From Candidatus Pacearchaeota archaeon (GTDB taxonomy: Archaea; Nanobdellota; Nanobdellia; Pacearchaeales; GW2011-AR1), in NCBI GenBank assembly GCA_018304105.1, contig JAGVWX010000007.1, positions 27,973-91,972 on the forward strand: a DNA stretch of 64,000 nt. The letters are read 5' to 3'. Below the pieces are notes generated by a model. That model was not told the origin of the DNA. It was given only the letters and a program-made list of their open reading frames with translations, and ran no database searches. Within the stretch, counting starts at the first letter, position 1, and each line of letters begins with the position of its first letter. Position numbers and translations under genes: made by a program. This document shows positions 1,663-61,074 of this stretch, piece after piece.

Positions 1663-3855
1663 ATGGGAATAGATTTTTTTAACAAGAGAGGTGAAGCGCA
1701 AATGCCTGAGATGCCCGGATTGCCGAAGTTGCCATCACTGCCAAAGAGCAGCGATGAAGAAACGGTAAAGGAAGTAAAGAGCGTTTTGTTTAAGAAGCCG
1801 GATGATGAATTTATAAAAAGACATGAGAAAAGTCATAAAATAAAGGAAGAGGTTAAGAAAAGTCAGAAGATAAAAAGAGGAGCAGGGAAGGGTCATAAAA
1901 TTAAAAGAAAGAAGTTGAAACATATGCCGAGAAAGCTGCCTAAGAAATCACGCCGCGAAATTAAAAAAGAAATGAAGAAGCTGGGCCATGAAATTAAAAA
2001 GAAGAAGCGGAATGAGCACGGAAAAGAAAAAGAGCTGGAAGCGAACAGCGCTAAGGCGTTTGTTAAGAAAGGCTCGCTGGTAAAGATTGCGCCAGAGAAA
2101 TCAAAGAACAGCGAAAAGGTCGAAGGGTACCGCTTGGAAGTTGATGGCGCTTATGCAGATGTCGAGTTGAGAAAAGATGAAGAAGGGCTGACTTACCATC
2201 TTTCTATTCCGGAGATAAGCACGGTAACTTCTATTTTTCTGGATGAGATAAGGAATGAACTTATAAGCGCGACGACGGTCAGCATGAAAGAGCTTACCGA
2301 CCCGACGCTGTTTTACAGGATTAAGAGAAGATTTTTGGAAGATTCAAGAAAGCTGCTCAAGGAGAAACTGCCCCATACTGAAAAAGCGGTTGAAGATTTT
2401 CTTGTTGGGACGCTGATGCAGGAAATGCTGGGTTTGGGAAAGATAGAATATCTTATCTCGGACCCGAATCTTGAGGAGATTGTCATTCCGTCTGCGAAAG
2501 AGCCAATAAGAATTTATTTTAAGAAATATGGGTGGCTGATTACGAATATCAGAATTGACAGAGAAGACGAGATTGTTAATTATGCGAATATAATTTCAAG
2601 AAGAATTGGAAGGCAGATAACGGTGTTGAATCCGCTGCTTGACGCGCATCTCGTCACAGGAGACAGAATCAACGCCGTCTTGTATCCCGTGAGCACGAAG
2701 GGAAACACGATTACTATCAGGAAGTTCGCGAGAGATCCATTCACAATGATTGACATGATAACCGGGAAGACCTGCAATCTTGAAGTTGCGGCACTATTGT
2801 GGCTGGCGATTGAGTACGAGATGAACGTCCTGATTTCAGGCGGAACCGGAAGCGGGAAAACTTCTTTCCTGAATGCGTGCATGCCTTTCATTCCGCCGAA
2901 CCAGAGAATCATAAGCATTGAGGACACGCGGGAACTGATGCTGCCGGAATTTTTGTATTGGGCGCCGTTAGTTACGAGAACTCCGAATCCAGAAGGAAAG
3001 GGCGAGGTCAGCATGCTCGATTTATTGGTAAATTCTTTGCGTATGCGCCCCGACAGAATTGTCCTCGGTGAAATGAGAAAACAGCAGGAAGCGATGGTTC
3101 TGTTTGAGGCGATGCATACAGGGCATAGCGTTTATTCTACAGTTCATGCGGATTCTGCTGCCGAGACTATTTCCAGGCTGGTAAATCCACCGCTGAATGT
3201 TCCGCCGAATCTGCTGAAGTCCGTGAATTTGAATGTTGTTATGTTCAGGGATAGGAGAATGAATAAAAGGAGAGTTTTGCAAGTTGCTGAGTTTGAGGCG
3301 GACAAGGGCGGGGCGAAGGCAAATATTCTTTATAGGCTTATTCCGGACAGGGATGAAATTGTAAAGCACGCCGAGAGTTCGAGATTTTTTGAAGATGTGA
3401 CTCGAAATACGGGCATGTCTGATGTAGAAGTCAATGAAGCGCTGAAGGAAAAGATGCGAATCCTTGAATGGATGATAAAAAATGGCTTGCGAAGCCTGGA
3501 GGAAATGGGAAGGGTGACGAACCTTTATTACAGAAACAAAGAATTGCTGATGAAAGCGATCCAGCAGAATAATAAAAATTTGGTTATGAAGCAGGTTAAG
3601 AAGGAAGAGGAGAAGGCGAATAAGATAATTGCAATTGAGAGAGAAGATAAATTTGTTTTGGCAGAAGAAAAGAAAGAGATGCCTGCAGAAGGAAAGAAAG
3701 AGATGCCTGCAGAAGAAAAGAAAGAGATGCCTGCAGAAGAAAAGAAAAGCTCTGGTGAATTAGAGAATAAACAGACAATTGCCAAGCTTGACGAGCAGAA
3801 AGCAGTTGAAAAAATTCTAGGCAAAGATTTTAAACAAAAATTGGCTTGGAAGTGA
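1663..3855 (+). CDS. Type IV pilus/T2SS assembly ATPase (VirB11/TadA/CpaF family)
   Basis: Walker A GGTGSGKT, ISIEDTREL, LRMRPDRIVLGEMR, TGH..TVHA. Confidence 0.95.
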   Translation: MGIDFFNKRGEAQMPEMPGLPKLPSLPKSSDEETVKEVKSVLFKKPDDEFIKRHEKSHKIKEEVKKSQKIKRGAGKGHKIKRKKLKHMPRKLPKKSRREIKKEMKKLGHEIKKKKRNEHGKEKELEANSAKAFVKKGSLVKIAPEKSKNSEKVEGYRLEVDGAYADVELRKDEEGLTYHLSIPEISTVTSIFLDEIRNELISATTVSMKELTDPTLFYRIKRRFLEDSRKLLKEKLPHTEKAVEDFLVGTLMQEMLGLGKIEYLISDPNLEEIVIPSAKEPIRIYFKKYGWLITNIRIDREDEIVNYANIISRRIGRQITVLNPLLDAHLVTGDRINAVLYPVSTKGNTITIRKFARDPFTMIDMITGKTCNLEVAALLWLAIEYEMNVLISGGTGSGKTSFLNACMPFIPPNQRIISIEDTRELMLPEFLYWAPLVTRTPNPEGKGEVSMLDLLVNSLRMRPDRIVLGEMRKQQEAMVLFEAMHTGHSVYSTVHADSAAETISRLVNPPLNVPPNLLKSVNLNVVMFRDRRMNKRRVLQVAEFEADKGGAKANILYRLIPDRDEIVKHAESSRFFEDVTRNTGMSDVEVNEALKEKMRILEWMIKNGLRSLEEMGRVTNLYYRNKELLMKAIQQNNKNLVMKQVKKEEEKANKIIAIEREDKFVLAEEKKEMPAEGKKEMPAEEKKEMPAEEKKSSGELENKQTIAKLDEQKAVEKILGKDFKQKLAWK
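3661..3748 (+). repeat. 24-bp coding tandem repeat (EEKKEMPA)
   Basis: gcagaag(a/g)aaagaaagagatgcct ~3.5 times. Confidence 0.9.
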
Positions 3856-26038: not shown

Positions 26039-28438
26039 ATGACACATGTTATTGACCCGAAAGAAAAACAGAAGCTTGAAGATTTGATTGAACTACTTGG
26101 AAGTATAAAAGGAAGACACACGGAGCTTGTTACTGTTTTGATTCCTGCCGGGGCGAACATTAACTTGATTCAGAGACAGCTCGAAGGCGAGAAGTCGACG
26201 GCTTCGAACATTAAGTCTGCTTCGACGAGGAAGAATGTTATTTCTGCGCTCGATATGATAATTCGAGAGATGAAAGGAATAAGGCAAACGCCGCCTAATG
26301 GGCTTGCGCTTTTTTGCGGGAACATCTCAGAGAAAGAAGGCTTTCCAGACATTCAGTTGTGGAATTATGAACCGCCAAAGCCGTTGAATGTAAAGATTTA
26401 CAGATGTGATCAGGAATTTATTATTGAACCTTTGAAGGAAATGGTTGCGATTGATGAAGTTTATGGATTGATTGTTATTGACCGGCAGCAGGCGACGATT
26501 GGCTTGCTCGAGGGAAGTCAGATAAAAGTTTTGCAGAAGCTGACTTCGGGAGTTCCGGGGAAAGTTAGGGCTGGAGGACAGTGTTTGTCGCCAGATACTC
26601 TGATAATGAAAGAAGACGGAGGGATAGTGCCAATAAAAAATGTCCATAACCCTATGATTATTATCACGGAAAATTTTAATCAAGAAAAAACTGAAGAGGC
26701 TCCCATAATTGCTAAATGGGAAAATGAAAAAGAAGTTTATCAGATAACAACAGCCTATCCAAAATTAAATATTCGAGCGTCTAAAGACCACACTTTTTTT
26801 GTTAGAACTGAAAAGGGCGTTATAGAAAAAGTTCTTTCGGAAATTAAGGAAGGGGATTATCTGCTCATGCCTGAAAAAATAAATCTCAACCTAGAAGAGC
26901 AGAAGATAGATTTTAAGCCATTGATTAAACAAGAATTTAATATGAAACAAGTCAATATACCAGAAAAACTAACTGCCGGTGTTGCTAAAATATTCGGCTA
27001 TTACCTTGGCGATGGTAATTATGAATTAGATAGAATTTCTTTTTCAGAACAAAGAAAGGAAGTTGCAGAATATTATAAGAAATTGATTGAAGAGTGTTTC
27101 GAAACCGAAGTAAAAATAAAGTTTAGAGAAAATAAAGGTTACTACCAATTACGAGCAGGGAGCAGAATTTTATCCCAGTTCTTTAGGAATGTATTCGATG
27201 AAAAAGAAAAAACGTTAAATGCAAGCATACCCTTGATTGTTTTAAAATCTCCAGATGAAATTGTAGCTTCTTTTATTGGTGGTTTTTTCGATGCTGAGGG
27301 GTACGTTTCAAAAAACAGGGTCGCTTTTGGAATTAACAACCAATTACTCGCAAGGCAGGTGCAGTTTGTATTATTAAGACTGGGTATTATATCTTCAATT
27401 AATGAATATGATAATAGAAAAAATCCTTATTCAAAAAAAACACGATATACTCTCGCTATCGACGATTTGGAGTCTCTTAAAAAGTTCTACGCGCTAATAG
27501 GATTTGCTTCGGGTGAAAAACAAAAAAAGGTTGCCGGGCTTATTTCAATCAGAGGCAACCGCAATAAAGTAAGGCAAATTGTCGTCAATGGAAGAGAAAT
27601 TGCACAGATAATCCATAATTCTGGCATGAACACCCGACAGTTTAATTGCCCAGACTTCTTTGTCAATAAGAAACAAATGAGCAAAGAAGTATTTAAGAAA
27701 AATATTTTGGATAAAATTCAAGACTCTGAATTAAGACGAAGGCTAGAGTTGTTTTATTTATCCAATCTTATTGCGGTTAAAATATCCTCTATTAAGTCGT
27801 GTGGTTTCCAAAAGACAGTCGATATCGAAACAAAAAACCATAACTTTATTGCAAACGGAATTTTGGTGCACAATTCAAGCCAGAGATTTCATCGTATTAC
27901 TGAAGGATTGGCGAAAGAATTTTTCAGGCGGGTTGCTGAAGATATGAAAAAGATTTTTTTTGACATGCCTAAGCTGAAAGGGATTTTGGTTGGAGGACCG
28001 ATTCCGACGAAAGAAGATTTTCTTGATGAGGGACAGTTGGTTACGAAGCTGAAGGAGAAGATTATTGCGATAAAGGACCTTGGGTATGTTGATGAGCATG
28101 GGTTGGAACTTTTAGTTGAAGCTTCGCAGGAAGAAATGCAAGAACAAGAATTGGTAAAGGAGAAAAAAATTCTTGAACGATTTTTTGAGACTCTTGGGAA
28201 AGATAGGAAAAAGGCGGCTTACAAAGAGCCGGAAGTTCGGCTTGCTTTGGAACGAGGAGCAGTTGATGTCTTGTTAATTTCTAAAAAGTTTGACAGAGAT
28301 AAACAGAAAGAATTTGAGCAGATGGCGGAGAATATTGGGTCGAGTATTGTATTGATTGGGGCAGACCATACCGATGGGGAGCAGTTTTGGAATTTGACTG
28401 AAGGGGTTGGGGCAATTTTAAGATTTAGTTTGGATTAG
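26039..28438 (+). CDS. prf1: Peptide chain release factor aRF1, intein-containing
   Basis: GRHTELVT, TASNIKS, YRCD, GGQ|...|SSQRF, GVGAILRF. Confidence 0.96.
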   Translation: MTHVIDPKEKQKLEDLIELLGSIKGRHTELVTVLIPAGANINLIQRQLEGEKSTASNIKSASTRKNVISALDMIIREMKGIRQTPPNGLALFCGNISEKEGFPDIQLWNYEPPKPLNVKIYRCDQEFIIEPLKEMVAIDEVYGLIVIDRQQATIGLLEGSQIKVLQKLTSGVPGKVRAGGQCLSPDTLIMKEDGGIVPIKNVHNPMIIITENFNQEKTEEAPIIAKWENEKEVYQITTAYPKLNIRASKDHTFFVRTEKGVIEKVLSEIKEGDYLLMPEKINLNLEEQKIDFKPLIKQEFNMKQVNIPEKLTAGVAKIFGYYLGDGNYELDRISFSEQRKEVAEYYKKLIEECFETEVKIKFRENKGYYQLRAGSRILSQFFRNVFDEKEKTLNASIPLIVLKSPDEIVASFIGGFFDAEGYVSKNRVAFGINNQLLARQVQFVLLRLGIISSINEYDNRKNPYSKKTRYTLAIDDLESLKKFYALIGFASGEKQKKVAGLISIRGNRNKVRQIVVNGREIAQIIHNSGMNTRQFNCPDFFVNKKQMSKEVFKKNILDKIQDSELRRRLELFYLSNLIAVKISSIKSCGFQKTVDIETKNHNFIANGILVHNSSQRFHRITEGLAKEFFRRVAEDMKKIFFDMPKLKGILVGGPIPTKEDFLDEGQLVTKLKEKIIAIKDLGYVDEHGLELLVEASQEEMQEQELVKEKKILERFFETLGKDRKKAAYKEPEVRLALERGAVDVLLISKKFDRDKQKEFEQMAENIGSSIVLIGADHTDGEQFWNLTEGVGAILRFSLD
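26582..27874 (+). mobile_element. 431-aa intein with LAGLIDADG homing endonuclease
   Basis: Starts CLSPDT, block B SKDHTFF, YYLGDG and GFFDAEG motifs, ends HNFIANGILVHN followed by Ser. Confidence 0.95.
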
Positions 28439-28468
28439 TTTTGGTTTATTTATTATTTGTTTTTTGAT

Positions 28469-28724
28469 TTGTTGAAAATCTTTTTTCGAGTTGGTTGCAC
28501 CCACCCACCCGCCCAGATAGTTTCGATTTGTATTAATAAATCTCTCAAATCGAATCATTTGTCGCATTAGGATTCCCACAAACTTTTCGCTTACAGCGAA
28601 AATCCCAACTCGCAGCCACGCTCGAAATCAATCAGGACATTACTCTCGCGTAACATGCTCGCCCTATCCACTATGCCACTTTACCCCAATAAATTAGTAA
28701 ACCAATATTTTGATTTTTTCAATA
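28469..28724. mobile_element. MITE-like modular element (copy A5) with G4 motif
   Basis: ttgttgaaaa..ttttcaataa ends; shares ~98 bp with A4 and the ctcgcagccacgctcgaaa module with A2. Confidence 0.8.
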
Positions 28725-28819
28725 AATTTTTTCTTATTTTTCTGAATTTTTGATTCTTCTCTTTCTTTTGATAATCTTTATCATACATATTAAGTAAACT
28801 TCTGTGTAAAACAGATAGA

Positions 28820-29233
28820 TTTATAAGGTAAAAGTCACACAAAATAAGTATCCTAGGGTGTGTGTTGTGGTAACTGAATTAGTAGTTACAAAAGTAGAAG
28901 ACTCAGTTAGCGAATTAGGTAGTTTTCAGAGTCTTACTAGTGATAATTTTAAACGGTTAATGCAGCGCAATTGGACACCAATTTTTGCGGCTGGTGTCTT
29001 AATTGTTGGTCTCGCTGCGCTCGTCATGCGCTGCATTTTTTCTATCAAATTTTTTAAACAGGAGTCGTCCACACACACCCTAGGAACCACAACACACACC
29101 CTAGTTGGACGACTCTCTGTTTCTTCTTTATCATATTTTTTGGACGGGCTGCCTAGCCACAACACATACCTTGGGAAAACACACACCCTAGAATTAGGCA
29201 GCCCTGTTTTCCTTTTCTTTCAGGAGGTGAATT
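28820..29233 (+). promoter_or_regulatory. Structured repeat/anti-repeat leader of the giant surface-protein gene
   Basis: TATA-like tttataa at 28820; anti-repeat 28852-28871; repeats at 29069, 29086, 29157, 29178 in two hairpin loops; SD aggaggtga at 29222. Confidence 0.6.
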
Positions 29234-32200
29234 ATGCATTTTGATTTAGATAATTTGGAAAAAAAGAGGAAGGAACTGCAAGAGAAAATTGGGCAGTTTG
29301 AGGCGCAGAAGAAATTTGTTAGGTCTGCGATTGAGAAGCTGACTGCGAGATACAATATCGGGGAGATAAAGTTTGATGAGTACAAAGAAGAGTATAAGAG
29401 AATTTTCAAGGACAAGACACCGGAACAGTGGACTAACTACTACAATATCCAAATCAAGTCTTGCAACGCGCAGCTGGATTGGTATGATTCTGAAATCAGA
29501 AAAGCGAGAAGTCGATTTGGGAAGAAAGCGCTAGCTGAAAGAGAGAAAGAAGAAAGGCAGAAAGCGATTCAAGAAAGGATACAAACGGCGGAGGGATACA
29601 AGAAGAGCGTTATTGGGAACGTTCAGGAACTTGTAAAGAAGTACAACGCGAGAGAGCTGACTTATGAGCAGTATCAAAGCGAAACGAAGAAACTTTACCA
29701 GGGAAATGAGCCGCAGAAACTTGTTGATTATTATGACGATTATATAAAGAAAGCAAAGAGCTTGAGCAGTTACGAGCCGAGAAAGAGCAAAGTAAAGACT
29801 AAATTAATTATGGTGCTGCCTCTGCTTTTGATTTTTGGATTGGCAATCTTCTTTTTGTTTGGTTTTGTTTTGAGACCGCAGTTTACCGGACTGACTGTTG
29901 AGATGGTTGATGAAGTTCATACGACAACTTACAATGCTGTCTTGAATGAAAGCACGATTTATGATTTTGATTTGTCTGATGAAGGAAGTTTGAATTGGAT
30001 TAAGTTTAATGGGGCGATAAGCAAGAAAGGAACAGTGAAAGTTTATTTGGATGATATTTTAATTTTGGATTCGGCAGATTTGGAAAGCGACGAACAATTT
30101 TCTGTTACTGGAAGTTTGATTAGTGGTTTTGCGAGTGAAGGAAGCGATGCGGCCGATAGCGGAACCGACCCTAGTTCTGAAGGTGCTGATTCTGGAAGTT
30201 CAGATGGCGGGAGTTCAACTGAGCAAGCGAGTGAAAGTTCAGGCACAGAAAGTTCGGGAGAAGAATCTGCTGGTAGTTCAGGAGAAGAACCAACTGGAGG
30301 GCCTAGTGCGGAGGAAGGCAGTCAAACTGGAGAAATCTCTGGAGGAACCGAGACAATGCAGACCGGTTCTGAAACTGGAAGCAACGAAAGCAACGAAAGT
30401 CCAAATGAAGAGACGAATGAAACTGAGCAAGAACCTGCGGGAAAGAATAATGAGACAGAAACTGCTGGAAATGAAACTGTTGTAGAAGAGCCTGGAGAAG
30501 AAACAGAGATTGTTGAAAAGATAAAGCTTGAAAATTATTGCAAGGAATCGTGTGACTTGAAAGAGCTCGGATTGAACAAGAGTTCTTACAAATTGAGGAT
30601 TGAAATTGAAAACGCGGAGTTTGAACTGGGCGAGTTGAATTACGAAATTAGTGTTGAGAAGGAAGCCGGCGTGGAAGAGAATGCCACGATAACCGAGCCG
30701 CCGGTTATGACAAAAGAAATTCCGAATATTGTTGTTGGGAAGAACGGATATTATGAACTGGATGTTAATGAATATTTCACCGGAGCGAGCGAATATTATT
30801 TGAAACAAACAGATAACCTTTCGACGAGTGTTTCAGGCAGCGTGATTAGAATTCAGCCAAGCGAGAATTTTATAGGAATAAGGGAAAGCAGAATTGTTGT
30901 TGTTAATGAATTTGGAAGTTCCGGAAGCAATTTGTTTAACATTACGGTTTCTGAAAATGAAAGTGCTGTTGAAGAGCTGTTAAATATTACAGGCAATGCG
31001 ACGTTTAATCTTACAACGAGACAGTATAAAGCGATAATCAATCGGCCTGTTAAATGGGTGAAGAAGATTGAACTTGGGAATTTGGAAGACGCGGGCAATC
31101 TGATTTTGGAAATTCCTAAGGAGTCTACGAATATTTCTATTAAGACTGGAGAGGAAGCAGAAGCGGCTTTGCAGGAAGCAGAAGATTATGAAGAAGCTGT
31201 TAACGATGCTGAACGGGAAGAAATTGTTGGAGGAGGAATTACTGGAAATGTTGTTAGCGACTTGCGAGGAAGAAAGGGAATTGTCACAAGAATTATAGAA
31301 TGGTTTAAAGGATTTGGAATAACTGGAAACGTAATCAGCGAAGATGAGCTGGGCGGGAGAATAACTGAAAGCAGCAACAGCAAGATTATTGACGTTAAGA
31401 AAATAGCCGAGCAGACTAACGAGAATGAAATCGCTGTCGAGTATTATACGCAGGCGCCTGGCGCGATTGAGGAAGATATAACACGAGGAAAGAGGATTAC
31501 AGTTTCAGCTCCGGATGAACTTGGCTACACAGATATTCTGGCTTATACGGCTTTGGACAATTCTCTGCAGATGGAAAATTCTAATTCCTTGAAAGTTTAC
31601 TGGCATGCATCTTACGAAGACGCAGTTGCTTACGGGTATATCAATGAAACTAAGGAAAAGAAAGTTAAGAAAAATACTGAAGAAGGCACGGAAGAAAATA
31701 TTGCGGAAGAAGATGCTGAAGAAAATGTTTCTGAAAACGCCGATATTGGAATTGCAAATGGAAGCTCTTTCCTTACGGGATTTGCTGTTTCGGGAAATGA
31801 TAAAAAATCCGGCGGGGATAATTCTAGAGATGTTCCTGTTAAAGGAACACAGGATTATTATCTTATTCCAATGGGCAGGGAAGTTTATGACATTGACGGC
31901 GACGGAAGAGTTGATTATGTTGAATGGGTTGTGCCGCACTTAAGCAATCAGACATTTGAGATAATAATAACTGATGCAGAACATCTTGATGAAAATAAGA
32001 ACTTTGTAGAAAATATTTTTGACTATGTTAATGAGATAGACGGAATAAATTATAATATTCCTGAAAATCATTACGCAAGAGCATATTTTGAAAGAGAGCT
32101 AACCAGTGATAACGTTATTGATATTGTTGTAAACAGCTCTAATTCAACCACGATTGAAGTTTATGAAAAAGATTCTAATGTTTTAGTTGGTAAAATGGAA

Positions 32201-35200
32201 AACGTTACTCAAGGATTTTATTACACTTCTTTGAATTTTTCCGGCTCGCAATCAGTGTTTGACTTAAAGTCAGTTGGGGGTGATGTAAACTATGATTATA
32301 TTCATGATGCAGCGAAAACTCTAGCTTCTGTTGCAATGTCAACTTCGCCATCGGGGAACATGAGCATTTTTGTTGGGGGCAATTTCACAATGACTTGCAC
32401 TCCAGCTTGTACAGGGTCTGGGTCGACTCCGACTGTTACAAACAATTATGTATATTCAACAACAGCATGGTGTGCGGGCAGCAATATAAACATAAATTCA
32501 AGCGGGGTGCTGACAAATCTTTCTGTTAATCCTGGTTCAGGCGCAAGCTGTGGGGCAACAACCGCAACAATTTATGCAAATTCAGCAGGGACAGTTTATG
32601 TAAGATGTAATTCAACAGAAGGTACACGTGTTGCTGTAAGCCCGCAATGTTATAACATTACTGTTAGCGCAGATACGGCTGCTCCTAACGTGAATATAAC
32701 TTATCCTTTGAATATAACTTATAATATAAATGTTAGCGCATTAAATTACACCGTAAGCGATACTGACGCATTAAGCGCATGCTGGTATAGTTTGAATGGC
32801 GGGGCGGCGAACACGACGATAACCTGTGGAGATAATGTTACAGGATTGACTTCTACAGAAGGAAGCAATACTTGGAAAGTTTGGGCAAACGACAGCGCGA
32901 ATAATGTTAATGTAAGTTCTGTAACTTTTTTGAAAGACACAGCTTATCCGATATTCTCTGCTTATTACGACAACAACGCAACTTTGACTGGAAGCGGAAC
33001 AGGATTGTTCAATGTTACTCTTACGAATACAAACGGAACTGTTTTCTTGGAGATTAACAATACGAACTACACTGCTCTAAATGTTACTTCAAATGTTTAT
33101 AATGTTTCTGTTTCATTGACGAACGGAACGTATTCATATTATTGGGGAAGCTGGGGAAATGGAACTTCTTATCTTTACAATACCTCTGGAATGAGAAGTT
33201 ATACTGTAAATGCAAGCAGCGCCACTGGAACAAATGTCTGGATATCTGCATCTGCTCAATTATTTACTAATGCGACTGCTTGGTCTCTTGGGCGCGTGCC
33301 AGTCGCCGGTGACGATGTAATATTCAATGGAACTGGAATAGGGAGCGTAAATATCACAAACAACACAATGCCGCAGGATTTGAATTCATTCACTGTCGAA
33401 AATAATTATCCCGGAAAGATTTATTTTGCGCCTTTATTTGCCGTAGGAACTTGGGGTTCGAATGCGGGAACGCTGTTGTGGAATGTTACAAATAATATTA
33501 ACATTTCAAACGGAACAATGTATGTTTATGGCGATGGATATAATATCACTGAAACTTGGATGAATAATCCCGGTATGCATAATATAACTGATGATGGACA
33601 TGGACAAGAGTGGCGTTCAGTGAACGGGAATATTACAATCGAAGCGAATGGGAAAATTGAAGGGGTTGGTTTGGGATTTGGACCTTGGATAGGACCGGGA
33701 GCACAATCTGGAAAATCAGGTACATACGGGGGCAGGGGAAATTTAAATACTGCAGACCCCTATGGGAATGCTACTGCCCCAACAAGTTTAGGAAGCGGTG
33801 GAGATTGCGTTGGTGCTGCGGCAATAAAATTGGATTCACAAAATATTGAATTAAATGGGCAAGTAAATATGAGCGGCGCTTCATGTAGCGCAGATTCAGC
33901 TTCTGGCGGAAGTATTTGGATAAAAAGTAATTCCATAGTAGGTAACGGAGTTCTGCGAGCAGATAGCGGTTCAAGCGGTATAAGGGGTGGTGGTGGTGGA
34001 AGAATAAGATTGGAATATGGAAATTCAATGAATTACACGGGCACAACTTCTATGATGGGGGCGAGAGTTGGAACTACTTCAGGAAGAGAGGGGACTTTAA
34101 CATTTACTAATAACACTTGGCCTTCTAATTGGGATTTAAAAGGAAATATAGGGTTGCTTGGAGGGAATTATGGCGACGGAAGCGTTGTAAACATTTTGGG
34201 AGATTTCAATACAAATAATTTTAATGTGACAATCTATGGAGACTGCTTTTACAATAAGACAAATCCAATAACGTGCCATAATACAACATCAGATGGAAAA
34301 GGAATTTGGCTTAATGCAAGTGGAAATATCACAATATCATCTTCTTCAATGTTAGATGGGATTGGATTAGGTTTCCCAGCTTCTACTGGACCTGGAACTA
34401 GCACGGGGGGTTCTTACGGAGGCAAGGCGGTTACTGGTGGTTCAACTTATGGAAATGAAACAATGCCGGTAAGCCTAGGAAGTGGGGGGGGAACTTCTGG
34501 AGGTTCTGCAGTGACAATAGAAGCACTCGGTTTTGTAAGAATGGATGGAAAAATTAATGTTTCGGGCACAGATAATGGTGGAGCCTACAATGGTGCTGGC
34601 GGTTCAATCTGGATAAAAGCCAGTAATATTACTGGAACTGGAGTTTTGATTGCAGTTGGCGGCGGAATATATGGCGGAGGAGGAGGAGGAAGAATTGCAC
34701 TTACTTCAACAAACATTATAGATTATGGTGGAATAATACTTAATACCGGTGGAATCTCAACTTCGAATAAAGATGGTTCAGGCGGCACGGTCTACATAAA
34801 TGCAAGCACATCAATAATAATCTCTGGAAATATTTCTGTTGTGGGAAGAAATGGAACTTCTGGAAGTGGGCAGACAATTAATGTTACTGCTCCTCTTTTG
34901 ACTTTGTCAGGAATATATAATGCATCTAGGATAAATCAAAGTGTTGCAGGAACAAGCGAAGGCAGAATAACTTTGAATTATACAGACTGTTCTTCAAACT
35001 TCACGAACGCTGTTTTTAATCCCGATGTAATTTGGTTGAATACAACTGCTTGTGGAGGGGGTACGACATATTCACTTTATCTTCCTTCCTATATAACATC
35101 TAACTTCCAAGTTAATGGTTCTGTTAATGTATCGCTTGTAAACGGCTCCTCGTATACTGACGACCAGTTTGTTAATTTCACTAACGCAACTTACGGAAAA

Positions 35201-38200
35201 AGACTGCAGATTTATGGACAATTTTCTTCGGGAAATGTAGACTTAACGAATATGACTCTTAATATGACTGATACAAAAACGGTTGTGGATTTATCTACGG
35301 TTTCCGGAATTGCAACGAACCATACGATATTTATTCCAAACAACCGCAATGCAGGAGTTGATATATGCCCGTCAGCCAAAACTCTCTCGGATTTAAACGT
35401 CAGCTGTCCGAATAAACTAAGCTTTAGTTATGCGGAACTTTCTGCTGGAACATGGAAGAGTGGGATTTTGGCGAGCGTGGAAGGAACATTGTATAAGATT
35501 GAGAATCTAACCGGTTCTGGCGGAGGAGAAGACTTTACGCCACCGAATATAAATTTCACAAATCCGACGCTGAGCAACGGAACAGCGCAGACGGCAAATT
35601 CAATTTATGTTAATGTTTCTTCATCTGACGCAAGCGACCATTACACATTTGCTGATTTTGACAGAAATGTCTTGCTGTGGATGAGAATGGATGATACGAA
35701 TAGTTCTGGAGATCCAACAGATATTTCTTCATGGAGCAATAACGGAAGCAAAGTTGGAGGAGCAGTAATTAATTCTACTTCCGGGAAATTTGGAAATGGG
35801 ACTTATTTTGATGGAAGCAACGATTTAATTAATGTTTCCAATAGCGCATCGCTGGCTTTCAATGCCGCAGGAAATTATACATGGTCTATGTGGGTGTATC
35901 CGACGACAGTGGACGCTTCACATGGCGGAATTCTTCAAAAATGTGTTGCAACCGGCAGTGGCCAGAAAGGATATAGTATTTATTTAGAAAATCAGGGAGG
36001 AGTTAAGCTCTTTTTTGGGGATTGTGGTTGGGTTGCTACAACCTACGCTGGACCTGCGGTCTCTTTGAATACCTGGACACATCTCGCAATCAGCTATTCT
36101 AACAAAAAGTTTACCTTTTACAAAAACGGGGTGGGGTCGGCGGGCAGCACTATTTCAGGCTTTACAAGCGAGAATCAATTTCCTTTGTACGTTGGGCAAG
36201 GCGTTGAATCTGCGAATACAGGCGCAACTTTACATTTTTCCGGCATGATTGATGATGTAAGTATTTTTAATAGAAATTTGAGCTCGCAGGAAGTTGCCGC
36301 GTTGTACAACGCAACAGCGAATCAATACTATAATAATTTCACTAATTTAGTTAGTGGGGCGCATACATTTACAGGTTATGCTGTTGATGCTGCAGGAAAC
36401 AAGAACCAGACTGAAGAGAGGACAGTAACGATTGATACGACGATACCGCAAATTAATTTCACGAATCCTACGCCGAGCAACGGAAGCTCGCAATCGAACA
36501 CAGATATTTATGTTAATGTCAGCTCGAGCGATTCTTCGCAGCATTATACTTTTGTTGACTTTGACAATGATTTGTTTTTGCGCTACACGATGGACGATGT
36601 GAATTCCAGTGGAGACCCAACTGATTTATCTTTCAATTCATATAATGGAAGCAGAGTCGGAGCGGCGTCGCAGACCAGCAACGGATATTTTGGAAAAGGA
36701 TTTAGCGTTGACGGACCTTCTTCTGTTTATGTCGCGGCTCCAACGATAAGCAATATGAACTTTACAATAAACGGCTTCACTCATTCGATGTGGGCAAAGT
36801 TTGACAGCCCCCCTAGCGCAGGACAGACGGATTATGTAGACTACGTTTATGCAGGAACTTCTGACGCCTTCTTTTTCAGAGTCGCAGAAAGCTTGGGAAC
36901 GTACAGCCTCTCAGCTTATGGAGAAATGAATAATGATGCATTTACTGTCACAAAGTCGGGAATGAGCCTTGCAGAATTGACGGGAGGATGGCATCATCTT
37001 ATTTCGGTTTACAATAAAACAGACGTGATATTTTATGTTGATGGAGTTGAAATTGGCTCTGACGGGACATCGAATGTTCAGACGGACACTAATTTTGAGC
37101 TGAACTTTTTCGGTTATGATATGACTGGAAAAATTGACGATGTGTTATTGTTTAACCGTTCTTTTTCAAGCCAAGAGGTATTGGCAATGTACGATGCTTC
37201 TGCAAACCAATACTATCGTAATTTCACAGGCCTTGCGGACGGAGCGCACACAATTAAGGGATATACAATTGACAGAGCGGGAAATAAGAACCAGACCGAA
37301 ACCAGAATGATAACTGTAGTTCTTCCAGACACAACGCCTCCGAATATTAATTTCACAAATCCTACTCCAACGAATGCCTCAACGCAAACATGGAATTCAA
37401 TTTATGTAAATGTTTCAACAAATGATTCTTCAGAGCATTATGCGTTTGTTGATTTTGACAAGTCACTTTTGTTGTGGATGAGGATGGACGACTTGAATGC
37501 GAGCAATGACCCATATGATTTGTCTTCTTGGAGCAATAACGGAAGCAAGCAGGGGAACGCGGCGCAGAGCAGTTCGGGGGCGTTCGGGGAGAGCTTTACA
37601 TTTGATGGGAACGGAGATTATATTTTAGTAAAGAATGAAAGCAATCTTGCGTTCAATGCGACAGGAAATTATACTTGGTCTGCGTGGGTTTATCCGATTG
37701 GAATTACACAAGGCGTAACGAATACAGGAGGGGTATTTGGGAAGTGTGCTGCAACTGCGGGCTCTAATCAGAAAGGGTATTCTATTTATTTGAATCCTGG
37801 CAGGAATGTTGTGTTCGGGGATTGCGACTATACTGCAACAGTGAGAACAAGCACGGGAACTGTAACATTAAATCAATGGAATCATGTTTTGGTTAATTAT
37901 ACAAATAAAGCGATGACGTTTTATATTAATGGAGTCGCGTCAGGAAGCGGCGCTCCAATTACAAGTCTGGGAAGCGAATCGACATTTAATTTGACGATTG
38001 GTTCTGGAGTTGAATCGTCTGCATCGGGGGTAACATTGTGGTTTAATGGTTCTATTGATGATGCGATGATTTTCAACCGTTCATTGTCCATCTCGGAGAT
38101 TTCTGCTTTGTATAACGCTTCTGCAAATCAATATTATAATAACTTTACAGGATTGAGTTCCGGAGGCCATAATTTTACAGGTTATGCTGTTGATACGGCA

Positions 38201-39601
38201 GGAAATAAGAATCAGACGGAGCAGAGACAAGTAACTGTTGATTTAAGCGCAGCTCCTACAATTCCTTACGTGTCTGCGATTGCGGATACAAATCCAATAG
38301 AAAATAATGCGACGCCGATAACATTTGTTGCAACCGTCAATGACGCGAATGGTGCGAGCGACATCAATGTTACCGGCGTGAATGCAAACTTCACTCGTGT
38401 TGGAGAGGCGTTAAGACAAAACCTAACCTGCGTAAATTTAAGCGGACAAGACACAGCAACGTCCAAGAACTTCTCTTGTTCAATAGAGATGTGGTATTTT
38501 GACTACGCTGGAAATTGGAATATCACAATAGGGGCGAGTGACCAAGGCGGACTTGGTGCGGTTAATGGCACGACTACATTCTCTTACGGTTCTTTGTCTG
38601 CAATGGTATTGTCGCCAAACAATATTAATTTTGGAAATGCAGGAAGCTCGCAGGCTAATGTAATCGGGCCGTACACGCAGGTGAATAACACTGGAAATTA
38701 TAACGCAACTAATCTTTCTATTATGGGAATGAATCTGCTTGGGCAAGACGATAGCAGCGTTGTTTTTGCTGTTGAGAACTTTACGGCAGGAACTGATCCG
38801 GCCGAAGGCTCTCCGCCGCCTTCATGTAATGTTGCCGGGGGAACCGCTACAAGATTAATCAATGGCTCTTATGTTAACATCACTGGCTCAAGCCTGCTGA
38901 GAGGAAATCATTCAGTCAACGACAATTCTACAGGACAGGAAAATATTTATTATTGCATTCCAAGCGTTCCGAATCTGCCAACTCAGGCGTATAGCACTTA
39001 CGATTCCGGAACTTCTCAGGCGTTTGAGTGGACAATCAAAATTGCTCTTGCAGTCTTCGTAAGAAAACTCAAGAGAAAGAAGAACCGCAAAGAAATCTTA
39101 AGCGAATTGAAGAAGAGACTACGCGGAGAGCTTGGAATTGAGAAGCTTGCGCTGCTGGACGAGAAACTGAAGGAAGAACAAGGCGTGAGCCTGTCAGAAA
39201 TGTTGAGCGATGTAAGAAGAGAGAAAGAGGCACTGCAGATTCCAATTGATGTATTCAGGCAGGACATAGGACCTTCTGAAGCGCTATGCAAGTATCTGAA
39301 AGAGAATGTTGGATTCAATTACAGCGAGATTGCCGATGCATTGAATAGAGATGACAGAACTGTTTGGATTAATTATAGAAATGCTGCGAACAAGAAAGCT
39401 GCAAAGACAAGAGTAAGAGCAGATACAGTTTATGTTCCAATAAGTGTGTTCAAGGACAGAAGATTGAGCGTCTTGGAAGCAGTTGTGAACTACTTCAGGA
39501 ATAGAGGACTTACAAACGTAGAAATAGCCAGATTGCTAGGAAAGGATCCAAGGAATATATGGACTTTGTACTCCAGAGCCGCTAGAAAGTTACAAAAATG
39601 A
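29234..39601 (+). CDS. Giant (3455 aa) surface glycoprotein: N-terminal coiled coil, TM, Gly-rich region, 3 LamG-like repeats, C-terminal tandem HTH
   Basis: TM near 29806-29872; many NxS/T sequons; WTHLA..IDDVSIFNRNLS LamG motifs; NYSEIADALNRDDRTVW and TNVEIARLLGKDPRNIW. Confidence 0.9.
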   Translation: MHFDLDNLEKKRKELQEKIGQFEAQKKFVRSAIEKLTARYNIGEIKFDEYKEEYKRIFKDKTPEQWTNYYNIQIKSCNAQLDWYDSEIRKARSRFGKKALAEREKEERQKAIQERIQTAEGYKKSVIGNVQELVKKYNARELTYEQYQSETKKLYQGNEPQKLVDYYDDYIKKAKSLSSYEPRKSKVKTKLIMVLPLLLIFGLAIFFLFGFVLRPQFTGLTVEMVDEVHTTTYNAVLNESTIYDFDLSDEGSLNWIKFNGAISKKGTVKVYLDDILILDSADLESDEQFSVTGSLISGFASEGSDAADSGTDPSSEGADSGSSDGGSSTEQASESSGTESSGEESAGSSGEEPTGGPSAEEGSQTGEISGGTETMQTGSETGSNESNESPNEETNETEQEPAGKNNETETAGNETVVEEPGEETEIVEKIKLENYCKESCDLKELGLNKSSYKLRIEIENAEFELGELNYEISVEKEAGVEENATITEPPVMTKEIPNIVVGKNGYYELDVNEYFTGASEYYLKQTDNLSTSVSGSVIRIQPSENFIGIRESRIVVVNEFGSSGSNLFNITVSENESAVEELLNITGNATFNLTTRQYKAIINRPVKWVKKIELGNLEDAGNLILEIPKESTNISIKTGEEAEAALQEAEDYEEAVNDAEREEIVGGGITGNVVSDLRGRKGIVTRIIEWFKGFGITGNVISEDELGGRITESSNSKIIDVKKIAEQTNENEIAVEYYTQAPGAIEEDITRGKRITVSAPDELGYTDILAYTALDNSLQMENSNSLKVYWHASYEDAVAYGYINETKEKKVKKNTEEGTEENIAEEDAEENVSENADIGIANGSSFLTGFAVSGNDKKSGGDNSRDVPVKGTQDYYLIPMGREVYDIDGDGRVDYVEWVVPHLSNQTFEIIITDAEHLDENKNFVENIFDYVNEIDGINYNIPENHYARAYFERELTSDNVIDIVVNSSNSTTIEVYEKDSNVLVGKMENVTQGFYYTSLNFSGSQSVFDLKSVGGDVNYDYIHDAAKTLASVAMSTSPSGNMSIFVGGNFTMTCTPACTGSGSTPTVTNNYVYSTTAWCAGSNININSSGVLTNLSVNPGSGASCGATTATIYANSAGTVYVRCNSTEGTRVAVSPQCYNITVSADTAAPNVNITYPLNITYNINVSALNYTVSDTDALSACWYSLNGGAANTTITCGDNVTGLTSTEGSNTWKVWANDSANNVNVSSVTFLKDTAYPIFSAYYDNNATLTGSGTGLFNVTLTNTNGTVFLEINNTNYTALNVTSNVYNVSVSLTNGTYSYYWGSWGNGTSYLYNTSGMRSYTVNASSATGTNVWISASAQLFTNATAWSLGRVPVAGDDVIFNGTGIGSVNITNNTMPQDLNSFTVENNYPGKIYFAPLFAVGTWGSNAGTLLWNVTNNINISNGTMYVYGDGYNITETWMNNPGMHNITDDGHGQEWRSVNGNITIEANGKIEGVGLGFGPWIGPGAQSGKSGTYGGRGNLNTADPYGNATAPTSLGSGGDCVGAAAIKLDSQNIELNGQVNMSGASCSADSASGGSIWIKSNSIVGNGVLRADSGSSGIRGGGGGRIRLEYGNSMNYTGTTSMMGARVGTTSGREGTLTFTNNTWPSNWDLKGNIGLLGGNYGDGSVVNILGDFNTNNFNVTIYGDCFYNKTNPITCHNTTSDGKGIWLNASGNITISSSSMLDGIGLGFPASTGPGTSTGGSYGGKAVTGGSTYGNETMPVSLGSGGGTSGGSAVTIEALGFVRMDGKINVSGTDNGGAYNGAGGSIWIKASNITGTGVLIAVGGGIYGGGGGGRIALTSTNIIDYGGIILNTGGISTSNKDGSGGTVYINASTSIIISGNISVVGRNGTSGSGQTINVTAPLLTLSGIYNASRINQSVAGTSEGRITLNYTDCSSNFTNAVFNPDVIWLNTTACGGGTTYSLYLPSYITSNFQVNGSVNVSLVNGSSYTDDQFVNFTNATYGKRLQIYGQFSSGNVDLTNMTLNMTDTKTVVDLSTVSGIATNHTIFIPNNRNAGVDICPSAKTLSDLNVSCPNKLSFSYAELSAGTWKSGILASVEGTLYKIENLTGSGGGEDFTPPNINFTNPTLSNGTAQTANSIYVNVSSSDASDHYTFADFDRNVLLWMRMDDTNSSGDPTDISSWSNNGSKVGGAVINSTSGKFGNGTYFDGSNDLINVSNSASLAFNAAGNYTWSMWVYPTTVDASHGGILQKCVATGSGQKGYSIYLENQGGVKLFFGDCGWVATTYAGPAVSLNTWTHLAISYSNKKFTFYKNGVGSAGSTISGFTSENQFPLYVGQGVESANTGATLHFSGMIDDVSIFNRNLSSQEVAALYNATANQYYNNFTNLVSGAHTFTGYAVDAAGNKNQTEERTVTIDTTIPQINFTNPTPSNGSSQSNTDIYVNVSSSDSSQHYTFVDFDNDLFLRYTMDDVNSSGDPTDLSFNSYNGSRVGAASQTSNGYFGKGFSVDGPSSVYVAAPTISNMNFTINGFTHSMWAKFDSPPSAGQTDYVDYVYAGTSDAFFFRVAESLGTYSLSAYGEMNNDAFTVTKSGMSLAELTGGWHHLISVYNKTDVIFYVDGVEIGSDGTSNVQTDTNFELNFFGYDMTGKIDDVLLFNRSFSSQEVLAMYDASANQYYRNFTGLADGAHTIKGYTIDRAGNKNQTETRMITVVLPDTTPPNINFTNPTPTNASTQTWNSIYVNVSTNDSSEHYAFVDFDKSLLLWMRMDDLNASNDPYDLSSWSNNGSKQGNAAQSSSGAFGESFTFDGNGDYILVKNESNLAFNATGNYTWSAWVYPIGITQGVTNTGGVFGKCAATAGSNQKGYSIYLNPGRNVVFGDCDYTATVRTSTGTVTLNQWNHVLVNYTNKAMTFYINGVASGSGAPITSLGSESTFNLTIGSGVESSASGVTLWFNGSIDDAMIFNRSLSISEISALYNASANQYYNNFTGLSSGGHNFTGYAVDTAGNKNQTEQRQVTVDLSAAPTIPYVSAIADTNPIENNATPITFVATVNDANGASDINVTGVNANFTRVGEALRQNLTCVNLSGQDTATSKNFSCSIEMWYFDYAGNWNITIGASDQGGLGAVNGTTTFSYGSLSAMVLSPNNINFGNAGSSQANVIGPYTQVNNTGNYNATNLSIMGMNLLGQDDSSVVFAVENFTAGTDPAEGSPPPSCNVAGGTATRLINGSYVNITGSSLLRGNHSVNDNSTGQENIYYCIPSVPNLPTQAYSTYDSGTSQAFEWTIKIALAVFVRKLKRKKNRKEILSELKKRLRGELGIEKLALLDEKLKEEQGVSLSEMLSDVRREKEALQIPIDVFRQDIGPSEALCKYLKENVGFNYSEIADALNRDDRTVWINYRNAANKKAAKTRVRADTVYVPISVFKDRRLSVLEAVVNYFRNRGLTNVEIARLLGKDPRNIWTLYSRAARKLQK

Positions 39602-60960: not shown

Positions 60961-61074
60961 GTCCGAGTAGCTCAGTGGAAGAGCGCTTGGCTGTTAAGTG
61001 CGATAATCGCCCATTCATCGATTTTTGAAATCACTGAAACCAAGAGGTCGGCGGTTCGATCCCGCTCTCGGACG
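60961..61074 (+). tRNA. tRNA-Asn(GTT) with a 42-nt intron at 37/38 (60997-61038)
   Basis: Acceptor gtccgag/ctcggac, D-arm, cttgg/ccaag anticodon stem, GTT at 60993, T-loop gttcgat. Confidence 0.9.

Follow-up and report, generated by a model that had tools for sequence, protein, structure and literature searches.

DPANN archaea are uncultured episymbionts with tiny genomes, and their giant surface proteins are presumed to mediate contact with the host. How the production of such a protein may be controlled is the question raised by a leader region in Candidatus Pacearchaeota archaeon (GenBank assembly GCA_018304105.1), the genome of which comprises 1,055,307 bases (1.06 Mb) in 23 contigs and is 89% complete. 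The region lies in a 64,000-nucleotide (nt) stretch of contig JAGVWX010000007.1, called here the window, between the eRF1 gene (26039-28438) and a gene encoding a giant protein of 3455 amino acids. It contains a short element close to the promoter, termed the 5' element, whose complement is displayed four times in the loops of two hairpins ahead of the giant gene. The best explanation for this arrangement, given a probability of about 0.5, is that positions 28850-29233 constitute the translated leader of the giant-gene mRNA, acting in cis as RNA. The anatomy of the leader, its conservation and co-variation in relatives, the open frame running through it and the uniqueness of its motif were established directly.

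Anatomy, conservation and co-variation of the leader

The original prediction, made from the letters of the window alone, had described the 5' element, four downstream copies and two perfect 10-bp stems, all of which are present, as is the Shine-Dalgarno (SD) sequence announced after the second stem, where AGGAGGTG at 29222-29229 follows a stem ending at 29204. A TATA-like box had been placed about 30 bp before the element; the box itself was confirmed, and it ends 25 nt before the element. The 5' element (cctagggtgtgtgttgtggt, 28852-28871) measures 19-21 nt overall, with complementarity beginning as early as 28850-28851. Its inverted matches are 19 nt long at 100% (28853-28871 with 29086-29104), 15 nt at 100%, 17 nt at 94% and 20 nt at 85%. 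A repeat search returned four direct copies of the loop motif, at 29070-29083, 29091-29104, 29161-29174 (79%) and 29178-29191. The loop of hairpin 1 holds two copies of the complement (A'), at 29070-29083 and 29086-29104, while that of hairpin 2 holds a degenerate copy (29157-29176) and an exact one (29178-29191). The three departures of the degenerate copy from complementarity, read by eye, are all G.U wobbles on the + strand.

With up to two mismatches allowed, the 13-mer ACACACACCCTAG has four matches in the window against 0.38 expected, a number reached in none of 100 shuffles; with up to one mismatch, the 13-mer core matches these same four sites only in the entire genome, and its reversed control matches none. 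Compared with shuffled sequences, the 396-nt leader folds with a z-score of -5.78, hairpin 1 with -6.33 and hairpin 2 with -2.76. Duplexes of the 5' element with the four sites were calculated at -26.1 to -38.0 kcal/mol, against a mean of -18.8 kcal/mol (standard deviation 3.0, best -30.8) for shuffled 5' elements. In Rfam release 15 the sole match at gathering score in the whole window was a tRNA at 60961-61074, with none at the leader, and a search of 28780-29260 at E ≤ 10 gave five weak matches, all far below the gathering scores.

Relatives of the N-terminal 500 residues of the giant protein were found in 22 of 61 genomes, including 16 of 20 of the same genus, and the upstream DNA was inspected for each orthologue whose start was on its contig. 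This yielded 19 leaders, from the source genome (G000), 15 other genomes of the genus, G119 and G180 (two other genera) and a metagenome contig (L075); the counts over 18 leaders given for the frame do not include L075. Each of the 19 has a TAAGTA box, a 5' element 0-6 nt later and one to three hairpins with GC stems that carry the complement of their own 5' element in the loop, and all are in the same orientation. The parts follow one another in a shared order: upstream box, TATA-like box, TAAGTA box, G/T-rich element, hairpins, T-rich tails and start codon. The regions upstream of homologous genes, to which the original prediction had pointed, therefore do contain the architecture in all 19 leaders, with covariation both between element and loop and within the stems.

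The core GGGTGT/ACACCC is nearly invariant, and the flanks vary (CCTAG, CTTAG, TTTTG, AATTG, CCTCTG), changing jointly in the 5' element and the loops; in two genomes (G008 and G002) the core itself has switched to TGGTGT/ACACCA. One flank position, as an example, pairs as AT in 10 leaders, GC in 3 and TA in 4, with a mismatch in 1 of 18. The longest Watson-Crick run of a 5' element averaged 12.8 nt against its own leader and 8.2 nt against the leaders of other genomes, and the cognate leader was best or tied best in 12 of 18 rows.

The stems change in a compensatory manner as well. In an alignment of 19 hairpins over 11 pairs, 86.8% of cells are paired, compared with 76.0% after shuffling and 32-58% in slid controls, and changes on both sides occur at 10 of the 11 pairs; several of the alignments and stem definitions used were built by the analyst from the same sequences. 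For four of five measures of stem covariation none of 500 shuffles reached the observed value, and for further pair types one of 500 did so. Two leaders (L008 and L022) have, within one genome, two hairpins with identical loops and different stems. The stems of 25 hairpins, in a count that leans on RNAfold, contain 27 G.U pairs versus two A.C 1x1 mismatches, an excess consistent with a + strand RNA.

A covariance model of the hairpin, run on 21 genomes of the genus, matched only these leaders, apart from one weak spurious match without the motif (G010:C45, E 0.005). The pattern alone is not specific, since a pattern search in 301 genomes, a sample with only three members of the genus besides G000, gave 4 matches versus 6 for the reversed control; two matches outside the genus show the full architecture by eye. 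A search for related loci with an alignment of five sequences found four loci in genome contigs, apparently from genomes already included, and three in metagenome contigs, of which one, L075, was both new and useful.

In two leaders (L027 of G009 and L006 of G019) a short element starting CTTATGCGAGCTGC is inserted in hairpin loops, with three copies in G009 and one in G019; no copy was found elsewhere in these two genomes, nor any in G000.

Table 1. Features of the leader and the giant gene (window positions).
Feature	Position	Strand	Remarks
Upstream box TATCATACATATTAAGTA	28779-28796	+	Copy of the initiator-region box; unique in the genome
TATA-like box TTTATAA	28820-28826	+	Kept about 18-20 nt before the TAAGTA box in orthologues
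Initiator-region box ACACAAAATAAGTA	28837-28850	+	Unique in the genome; putative start at about 28850-28851
5' element (A) tcctagggtgtgtgttgtggt	28851-28871	+	Complementary to the loop sites; holds in-frame GTG codons of the upstream frame at 28858 and 28867
Upstream open reading frame	28858-29244	+	128 codons, GTG start, spans both hairpins; TGA at 29242-29244 overlaps codons 3-4 of the giant gene
Two T6 runs	29036-29041, 29050-29055	+	Directly before hairpin 1
Hairpin 1	29062-29115	+	Perfect 10-bp stem (29062-29071/29106-29115), 34-nt loop
T-rich tail of hairpin 1	29116-29141	+	Ends in T6 run 29136-29141
Hairpin 2	29146-29204	+	Perfect 10-bp stem (29146-29155/29195-29204), 39-nt loop
T/C-rich tail of hairpin 2 tgttttccttttctttc	29205-29221	+	
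Shine-Dalgarno sequence AGGAGGTG of the giant gene	29222-29229	+	ATG at 29234
Giant gene	29234-39601	+	3455 amino acids
C-terminal tail	39068-39598	+	Two sigma-70-region-4-like helix-turn-helix repeats; residues about 3279-3455, the last 177

Open frame, T-tracts and a proposed mechanism

The position of the promoter suggests where the transcript begins. Each of the two boxes flanking the TATA-like box has a single occurrence in the whole genome, and the orthologues have, at the corresponding position, a box related to that at 28779-28796. Three further genera (L016, L019 and L024 in genomes G033, G026 and G025) retain the promoter boxes, but there an ATG stands directly after TAAGTA and there is no hairpin leader, so that the mRNAs of these orthologues would be leaderless. 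For this reason the transcription start was placed at the end of TAAGTA, at about 28850 in the window, and the 5' element would therefore be the 5' end of the transcript. The start-region box recurs about 60 nt upstream (28779-28796 and 28837-28850), and in L019 the promoter unit is tandemly repeated. Paralogous giant-like genes (L056, L057, L059) have a box variant of their own at both places, which is TAAGCT in two of them and TAAGAC in one, as compared with TAAGTA here.

The original prediction had the anatomy right and lacked three things: the conservation in relatives, the T-tracts of the hairpins and an upstream open reading frame (uORF) through the leader. Because this frame runs to the start of the giant gene and the hairpins carry T-tracts, the likely mechanism differs from those offered there. 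In the window the uORF frame has 0 stops, compared with 10 and 12 in the other frames (shuffle p = 0.001). Sixteen of 18 leaders have a frame that is open over at least 0.91 of their length and whose stop falls between 9 nt upstream and 17 nt downstream of the giant ATG. In L075 the corresponding frame lacks any stop over 440 nt, compared with 9 stops in each of the two others, and with this leader included the spanning uORF is open in 17 of 19. The shuffle p is at most 0.05 in 13 of 18 leaders, and in four the stop and the start overlap as ATGA. The first in-frame start codon lies inside the 5' element or a few nucleotides away.

The uORF peptides are dissimilar between genomes, and the ACACC core occurs in each of the three phases (15, 8 and 4 cases); with the motif read in all phases, it is the open frame that is kept, and not a peptide product. 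The window product has a clear hydrophobic stretch, WTPIFAAGVLIVGLAALVMRCIF, and such stretches occur in several relatives too, while the peptides of some leaders (L017, L018) are hydrophilic. By eye, roughly half of the leaders show a second SD-like, purine-rich stretch downstream of the element, complementary to a CU-rich stretch at the 3' end of the loop. No SD-like 5-mer was found at 9 of 18 giant genes, even though these lie 150-320 nt into the transcript, which is consistent with delivery of ribosomes through the uORF.

Two other features were seen within the frame. A perfect 11-bp inverted repeat, AATGCAGCGCA / TGCGCTGCATT (28959-29037), encloses the stretch coding for the hydrophobic segment and was not seen in the relatives read. 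One leader (L013 of G005) consists of three near-identical tandem hairpin units with a 79-nt period, which take up three different phases in the spanning frame.

T-runs of at least 4 nt follow 16 of 21 hairpins, and T makes up 0.60 of the 15 nt that follow the stem, compared with 0.32 of whole leaders. A T6 run also precedes each hairpin in the window and in closer relatives, and runs similar to ATATTTTTT stand before the hairpins of several relatives. The hairpins with covarying stems and T-runs lie inside the uORF, between the promoter and the giant gene. A simple scan for promoters and terminators, limited to loops of 3-8 nt, is uninformative for these large-loop hairpins, which are outside its range. 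According to PMC8716108, the efficacy of archaeal termination is set by the U-tract together with aCPSF1; in parts of PMC12548453 archaeal polarity is attributed to FttA, and translational coupling is said to require a short stop-start spacing in archaea too.

Taken together, these features make it probable that the region is a structured, translated leader that acts at the RNA level. A more specific mechanism, in which coupling is combined with a lock, is proposed tentatively. Transcription would begin just past the TAAGTA box, and the 5' element would be both the extreme 5' end of the mRNA and the start region of the uORF, which would pass two T-tract-flanked hairpins before stopping on top of the giant ATG. 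A ribosome loaded at the 5' end before the polymerase has left the leader would trail the polymerase through the hairpins, preventing these terminator-like structures from forming or from acting at the T-tracts, and would then terminate at the uORF stop and reinitiate on the giant gene. Without a trailing ribosome the hairpins would form and transcription would tend to halt before the 10-kb gene. As each loop carries the complement of the presumed 5' initiation region of the mRNA, an untranslated leader RNA could clamp that region; the clamp would keep ribosomes off truncated, stop-less transcripts and base-pair their 5' end. Stated in full, this would be an archaeal leader-ORF attenuator with a safety lock, in which the giant gene is transcribed only when a ribosome rides behind the polymerase through the terminator array and aborted, stop-less leaders silence themselves; in this complete form the proposal is possible and rather doubtful. 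Its weakest part is the idea that each potential termination point carries its own lock on the initiation region of the uORF, and the 5'-loop complementarity is not part of the ribosome-coupled attenuator model proper. What is said here of where transcription begins, of a stop at the T-tracts, of coupling, and of the sign and function of the pairing between the 5' element and the loops is deduced from features of the sequence.

Several observations weigh against this account. Between the loop site and the 5' strand of the stem there is a gap of 0-4 nt, and the 5'-loop duplex invades only 0-5 nt of the stem, so that it is not a classical antiterminator. In nested folding the 5'-loop pairing excludes the stem, and the minimum free energy structure pairs the 5' core with a loop site in 9 of the 16 leaders free of N. 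The duplex and the stem would together form an H-type pseudoknot, and the 9 of 16 may result from the fact that nested folding cannot show such a structure. A T-run of at least 4 nt is missing after 5 of 21 hairpins, and since archaeal termination needs no hairpin, the role given to the stems is open to objection. The uORF has a shuffle p above 0.05 in 5 of 18 leaders. In L010 (G015) it ends within the last hairpin, at the 3' edge of the loop and 40 nt before the ATG, and in L027, a close relative of L075 whose sequence contains NN, its coverage is only 0.80; the L023 and L027 leaders contain N, which cannot score as a stop.

The evidence for an RNA on the + strand is subject to similar reservations. 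Hairpin energies of the two strands are mixed and do not uniformly favour the + strand, with the G/T-rich loops of the minus strand as a confounder, and a count of non-Watson-Crick pairs in fixed windows, confounded by base composition, gave 60 G.U versus 32 A.C. Co-variation of inverted repeats would likewise be expected for co-evolving protein sites or recombining DNA repeats. The leader genomes are relatives, several of them fragmentary, and the counts therefore overstate independence. Finally, the start site, the 3' ends and the translation of the uORF are themselves predictions.

Alternative explanations

An RNA element with another purpose would share most of this evidence. In such a case the uORF would deliver ribosomes or encode a small, often hydrophobic peptide, and the pairing would stabilise or store the mRNA, with its 5' end paired against exonucleases and the message held closed and dormant, without control of termination. 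The anatomy and the co-variation are equally expected under this explanation, which also draws on the hydrophobic stretch WTPIFAAGVLIVGLAALVMRCIF and its counterparts in several relatives, and on the strong duplex energies of -26 to -38 kcal/mol. It leaves the T-tracts after 16 of 21 hairpins unaccounted for, and a role for the peptide is hard to reconcile with products that differ between genomes and are hydrophilic in some leaders (L017, L018), or with a motif read in three phases. This explanation is considered unlikely, and among the alternatives it is the most probable. Of the readings offered by the original prediction, a cis-regulatory RNA whose 5' end pairs with loop sites is favoured by the co-variation of the 5' element with the loops, by the compensatory stems and by the putative location of the element at the 5' end; the two others involved DNA.

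The first of these was an operator array, in which the motif would be bound as DNA by a transcription factor, perhaps the helix-turn-helix (HTH) tail of the giant protein itself, with one site over the transcription start and others downstream, acting by repression or looping. The topology of the giant protein, read from its sequence, comprises a cytoplasmic, coiled-coil-like N-terminal region, a transmembrane helix near residue 200, an ectodomain with three Laminin_G_3 stretches, and a hydrophobic segment followed by basic residues near residue 3270; the tail is probably cytoplasmic because it lies downstream of that segment and the basic residues. Its two HTH repeats match Pfam at 23.4 and 20.7 bits, under the cut-offs. 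The tail is kept at 37-71% identity in sequences of 12 relatives, with nearly invariant putative recognition helices, and its conservation across the genus (up to 71% identity) exceeds that of the N-terminus (up to 61%). A structure model (pLDDT 85.8) has two helical repeats. Foldseek matches to it were weak, the best at E = 0.034 and none at E ≤ 0.001, and included many sigma region 4 chains along with other two-part DNA-binding domains; a sequence search against the PDB found nothing below E = 0.37. On this evidence, a membrane-tethered DNA-binding domain on a 3455-residue ectoprotein is plausible. The tail of a TAAGCT-type paralogue (L073) differs in the first putative recognition helix.

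A probably cytoplasmic, conserved tail with two confidently modelled helical repeats, and fold matches that include sigma region 4, speak for the operator array, as does a site over the transcription start, which is a usual place for archaeal repressors. A DNA site, on the other hand, needs no hairpin loop located 0-4 nt past a stem strand that varies by compensatory change, and the open frame across the sites and the G.U rather than A.C departures would be left unexplained. The flanks of the motif vary between genomes while the putative recognition helices are nearly invariant, and the tail also occurs in two genomes, G026 and G033, in which the orthologue has neither leader nor motif, with the linkage of tail and gene across contigs not established in these genomes. 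The promoter boxes, which differ between paralogues (TAAGTA, TAAGCT, TAAGAC), are more natural candidates and may be the real sites of the HTH tail. The HTH pair of the original prediction thus stands as a plausible domain on the cytoplasmic side of the membrane, and nothing ties it to the repeated motif; with Pfam scores below cut-off and no Foldseek match at E ≤ 0.001, an operator array appears improbable.

The second was phase variation through flipping of the segment that separates the 5' copy from one of its four inverted counterparts, whereby T-tracts would become A-tracts; perfect inverted repeats of 15-19 bp, 205-311 bp apart, speak for it. It fared badly. In each of three DNA runs one contig spans from 28539 or 28567 to 30400 in the orientation of the window, and the contigs of four DNA runs (X7, X8, X9, X12) contain no inverted joint inside 28852-29204, hence none between 28852 and 29069-29191, although contigs drop rare variants and those of X12 are fragmented around 29126-29270, at low depth. 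All 19 leaders are in one orientation with the frame open, the promoter is outside the invertible segment, and a Pfam search of six proteins around the locus, two of which have no family at all, found no recombinase family. Inversion is accordingly regarded as very improbable, and the same applies to a programmed -1 frameshift signal, as might be suspected from the heptamers TTTTTTA and TTTTTTG located 3-5 nt before hairpins that could form pseudoknots with the 5' element. Here TAT TTT TTG (29134-29142) is in the X XXY YYZ register of the uORF, and the A' site directly adjoins the 5' strand of the stem, an arrangement known from H-type pseudoknots; but the -1 frame reaches a TAG within five codons (by eye), the heptamer that comes first does not fit the register, such heptamers are missing from half of the relatives, and it is the zero frame itself that is kept open.

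Four other candidates were rejected: a bulge-helix-bulge processing stem, since the duplexes are uninterrupted by eye; an H/ACA or C/D guide RNA, in the absence of boxes by eye; a retron or diversity-generating retroelement RNA, as a Pfam scan of the locus revealed no reverse transcriptase; and a type I toxin, because the peptides are not consistently hydrophobic.

Comparison with known systems and neighbouring features

In bacteria, attenuation of transcription by way of a translated leader is textbook knowledge; cis-acting RNA control is poorly charted in archaea. A close counterpart of the proposed translated attenuator is the pyrBI (pyrL) leader of E. coli, where the ribosome translating a leader ORF crosses an intrinsic terminator located downstream of the promoter and ahead of the structural gene. 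A short leader ORF that starts near the predicted 5' end was likewise found here (28858-29244; 16 of 18 leaders and L075). Passages on pyrL in PMC5021804 describe tight ribosome coupling as blocking formation of the terminator, and U-rich stretches around the hairpin are a further resemblance. The present leader differs in being archaeal, from the DPANN group, in having one to three hairpins with very large loops, and in a leader ORF that ends on the start codon of the main gene. Its loops complement the 5' end of the mRNA itself, a feature absent from pyrL, no link to a nucleotide pool is known here, and archaeal termination relies on U-tracts and FttA, not on hairpins.

In the hok/sok system of plasmid R1 the mRNA folds back and its 5' end pairs with a complement far downstream (tac-fbi), which locks translation, and an overlapping mok frame couples translation; the fold-back pairing of the hok family was recognised via coupled covariations. 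A predicted pairing of the putative 5' end with a distant complement, supported by covariation, and an overlapping upstream frame are found here too. Unlike in hok/sok, the main product is a 3455-residue surface protein rather than a small membrane toxin, the uORF peptides are not consistently hydrophobic, and the complement is located in leader hairpin loops, in several copies, and not at the 3' end; no antisense RNA was seen, and no search for one was made. In the RNA phage MS2 a long-distance pairing ties translation of the replicase to that of the coat gene. Similarly, translation of the upstream frame would here melt a long-range pairing that closes an initiation region, except that the region closed would be the upstream frame's own and its partner lies inside the same frame.

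A stop located from -9 to +17 nt of the ATG falls within the spacing for coupling in Haloferax as given in passages of PMC12548453, so that the locus also resembles archaeal termination-reinitiation, with the difference that the upstream partner is an open frame over a structured leader and not a conserved protein gene. Among the titles listed by full-text searches of the literature there was no archaeal leader-ORF attenuator or such control, which does not prove that none has been published; bacteria are known to have the components, and the combination and the host lineage were not found described.

The leader appears to be a means of making expression of the giant gene dependent on ongoing translation, and as a conserved, locus-specific control region it offers a concrete handle on the timing of giant surface-protein production. 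It is a compact construct of about 400 nt that is testable in vitro or in a tractable archaeon, and the leaders, with their invariant core and co-varying flanks, form an unusually clean comparative data set for RNA-RNA pairing.

Some features of the surrounding DNA were also recorded. According to Pfam, an intein that has a LAGLIDADG endonuclease domain interrupts the upstream eRF1 gene. The tRNA found by Rfam probably contains an intron, because its match is 114 nt long against a model of 71 positions; ARAGORN found no tRNA in the window. Sequencing runs containing DNA of the window are mostly labelled groundwater metagenomes, with some from soil, and no RNA run is among those listed. Between the 3' end of the eRF1 gene and the promoter, at 28458-28600, metagenome contigs deviate from the window: an insertion of 23 nt stands behind 28566 in two runs, and a variant that skips 28531-28597 is present in all four.

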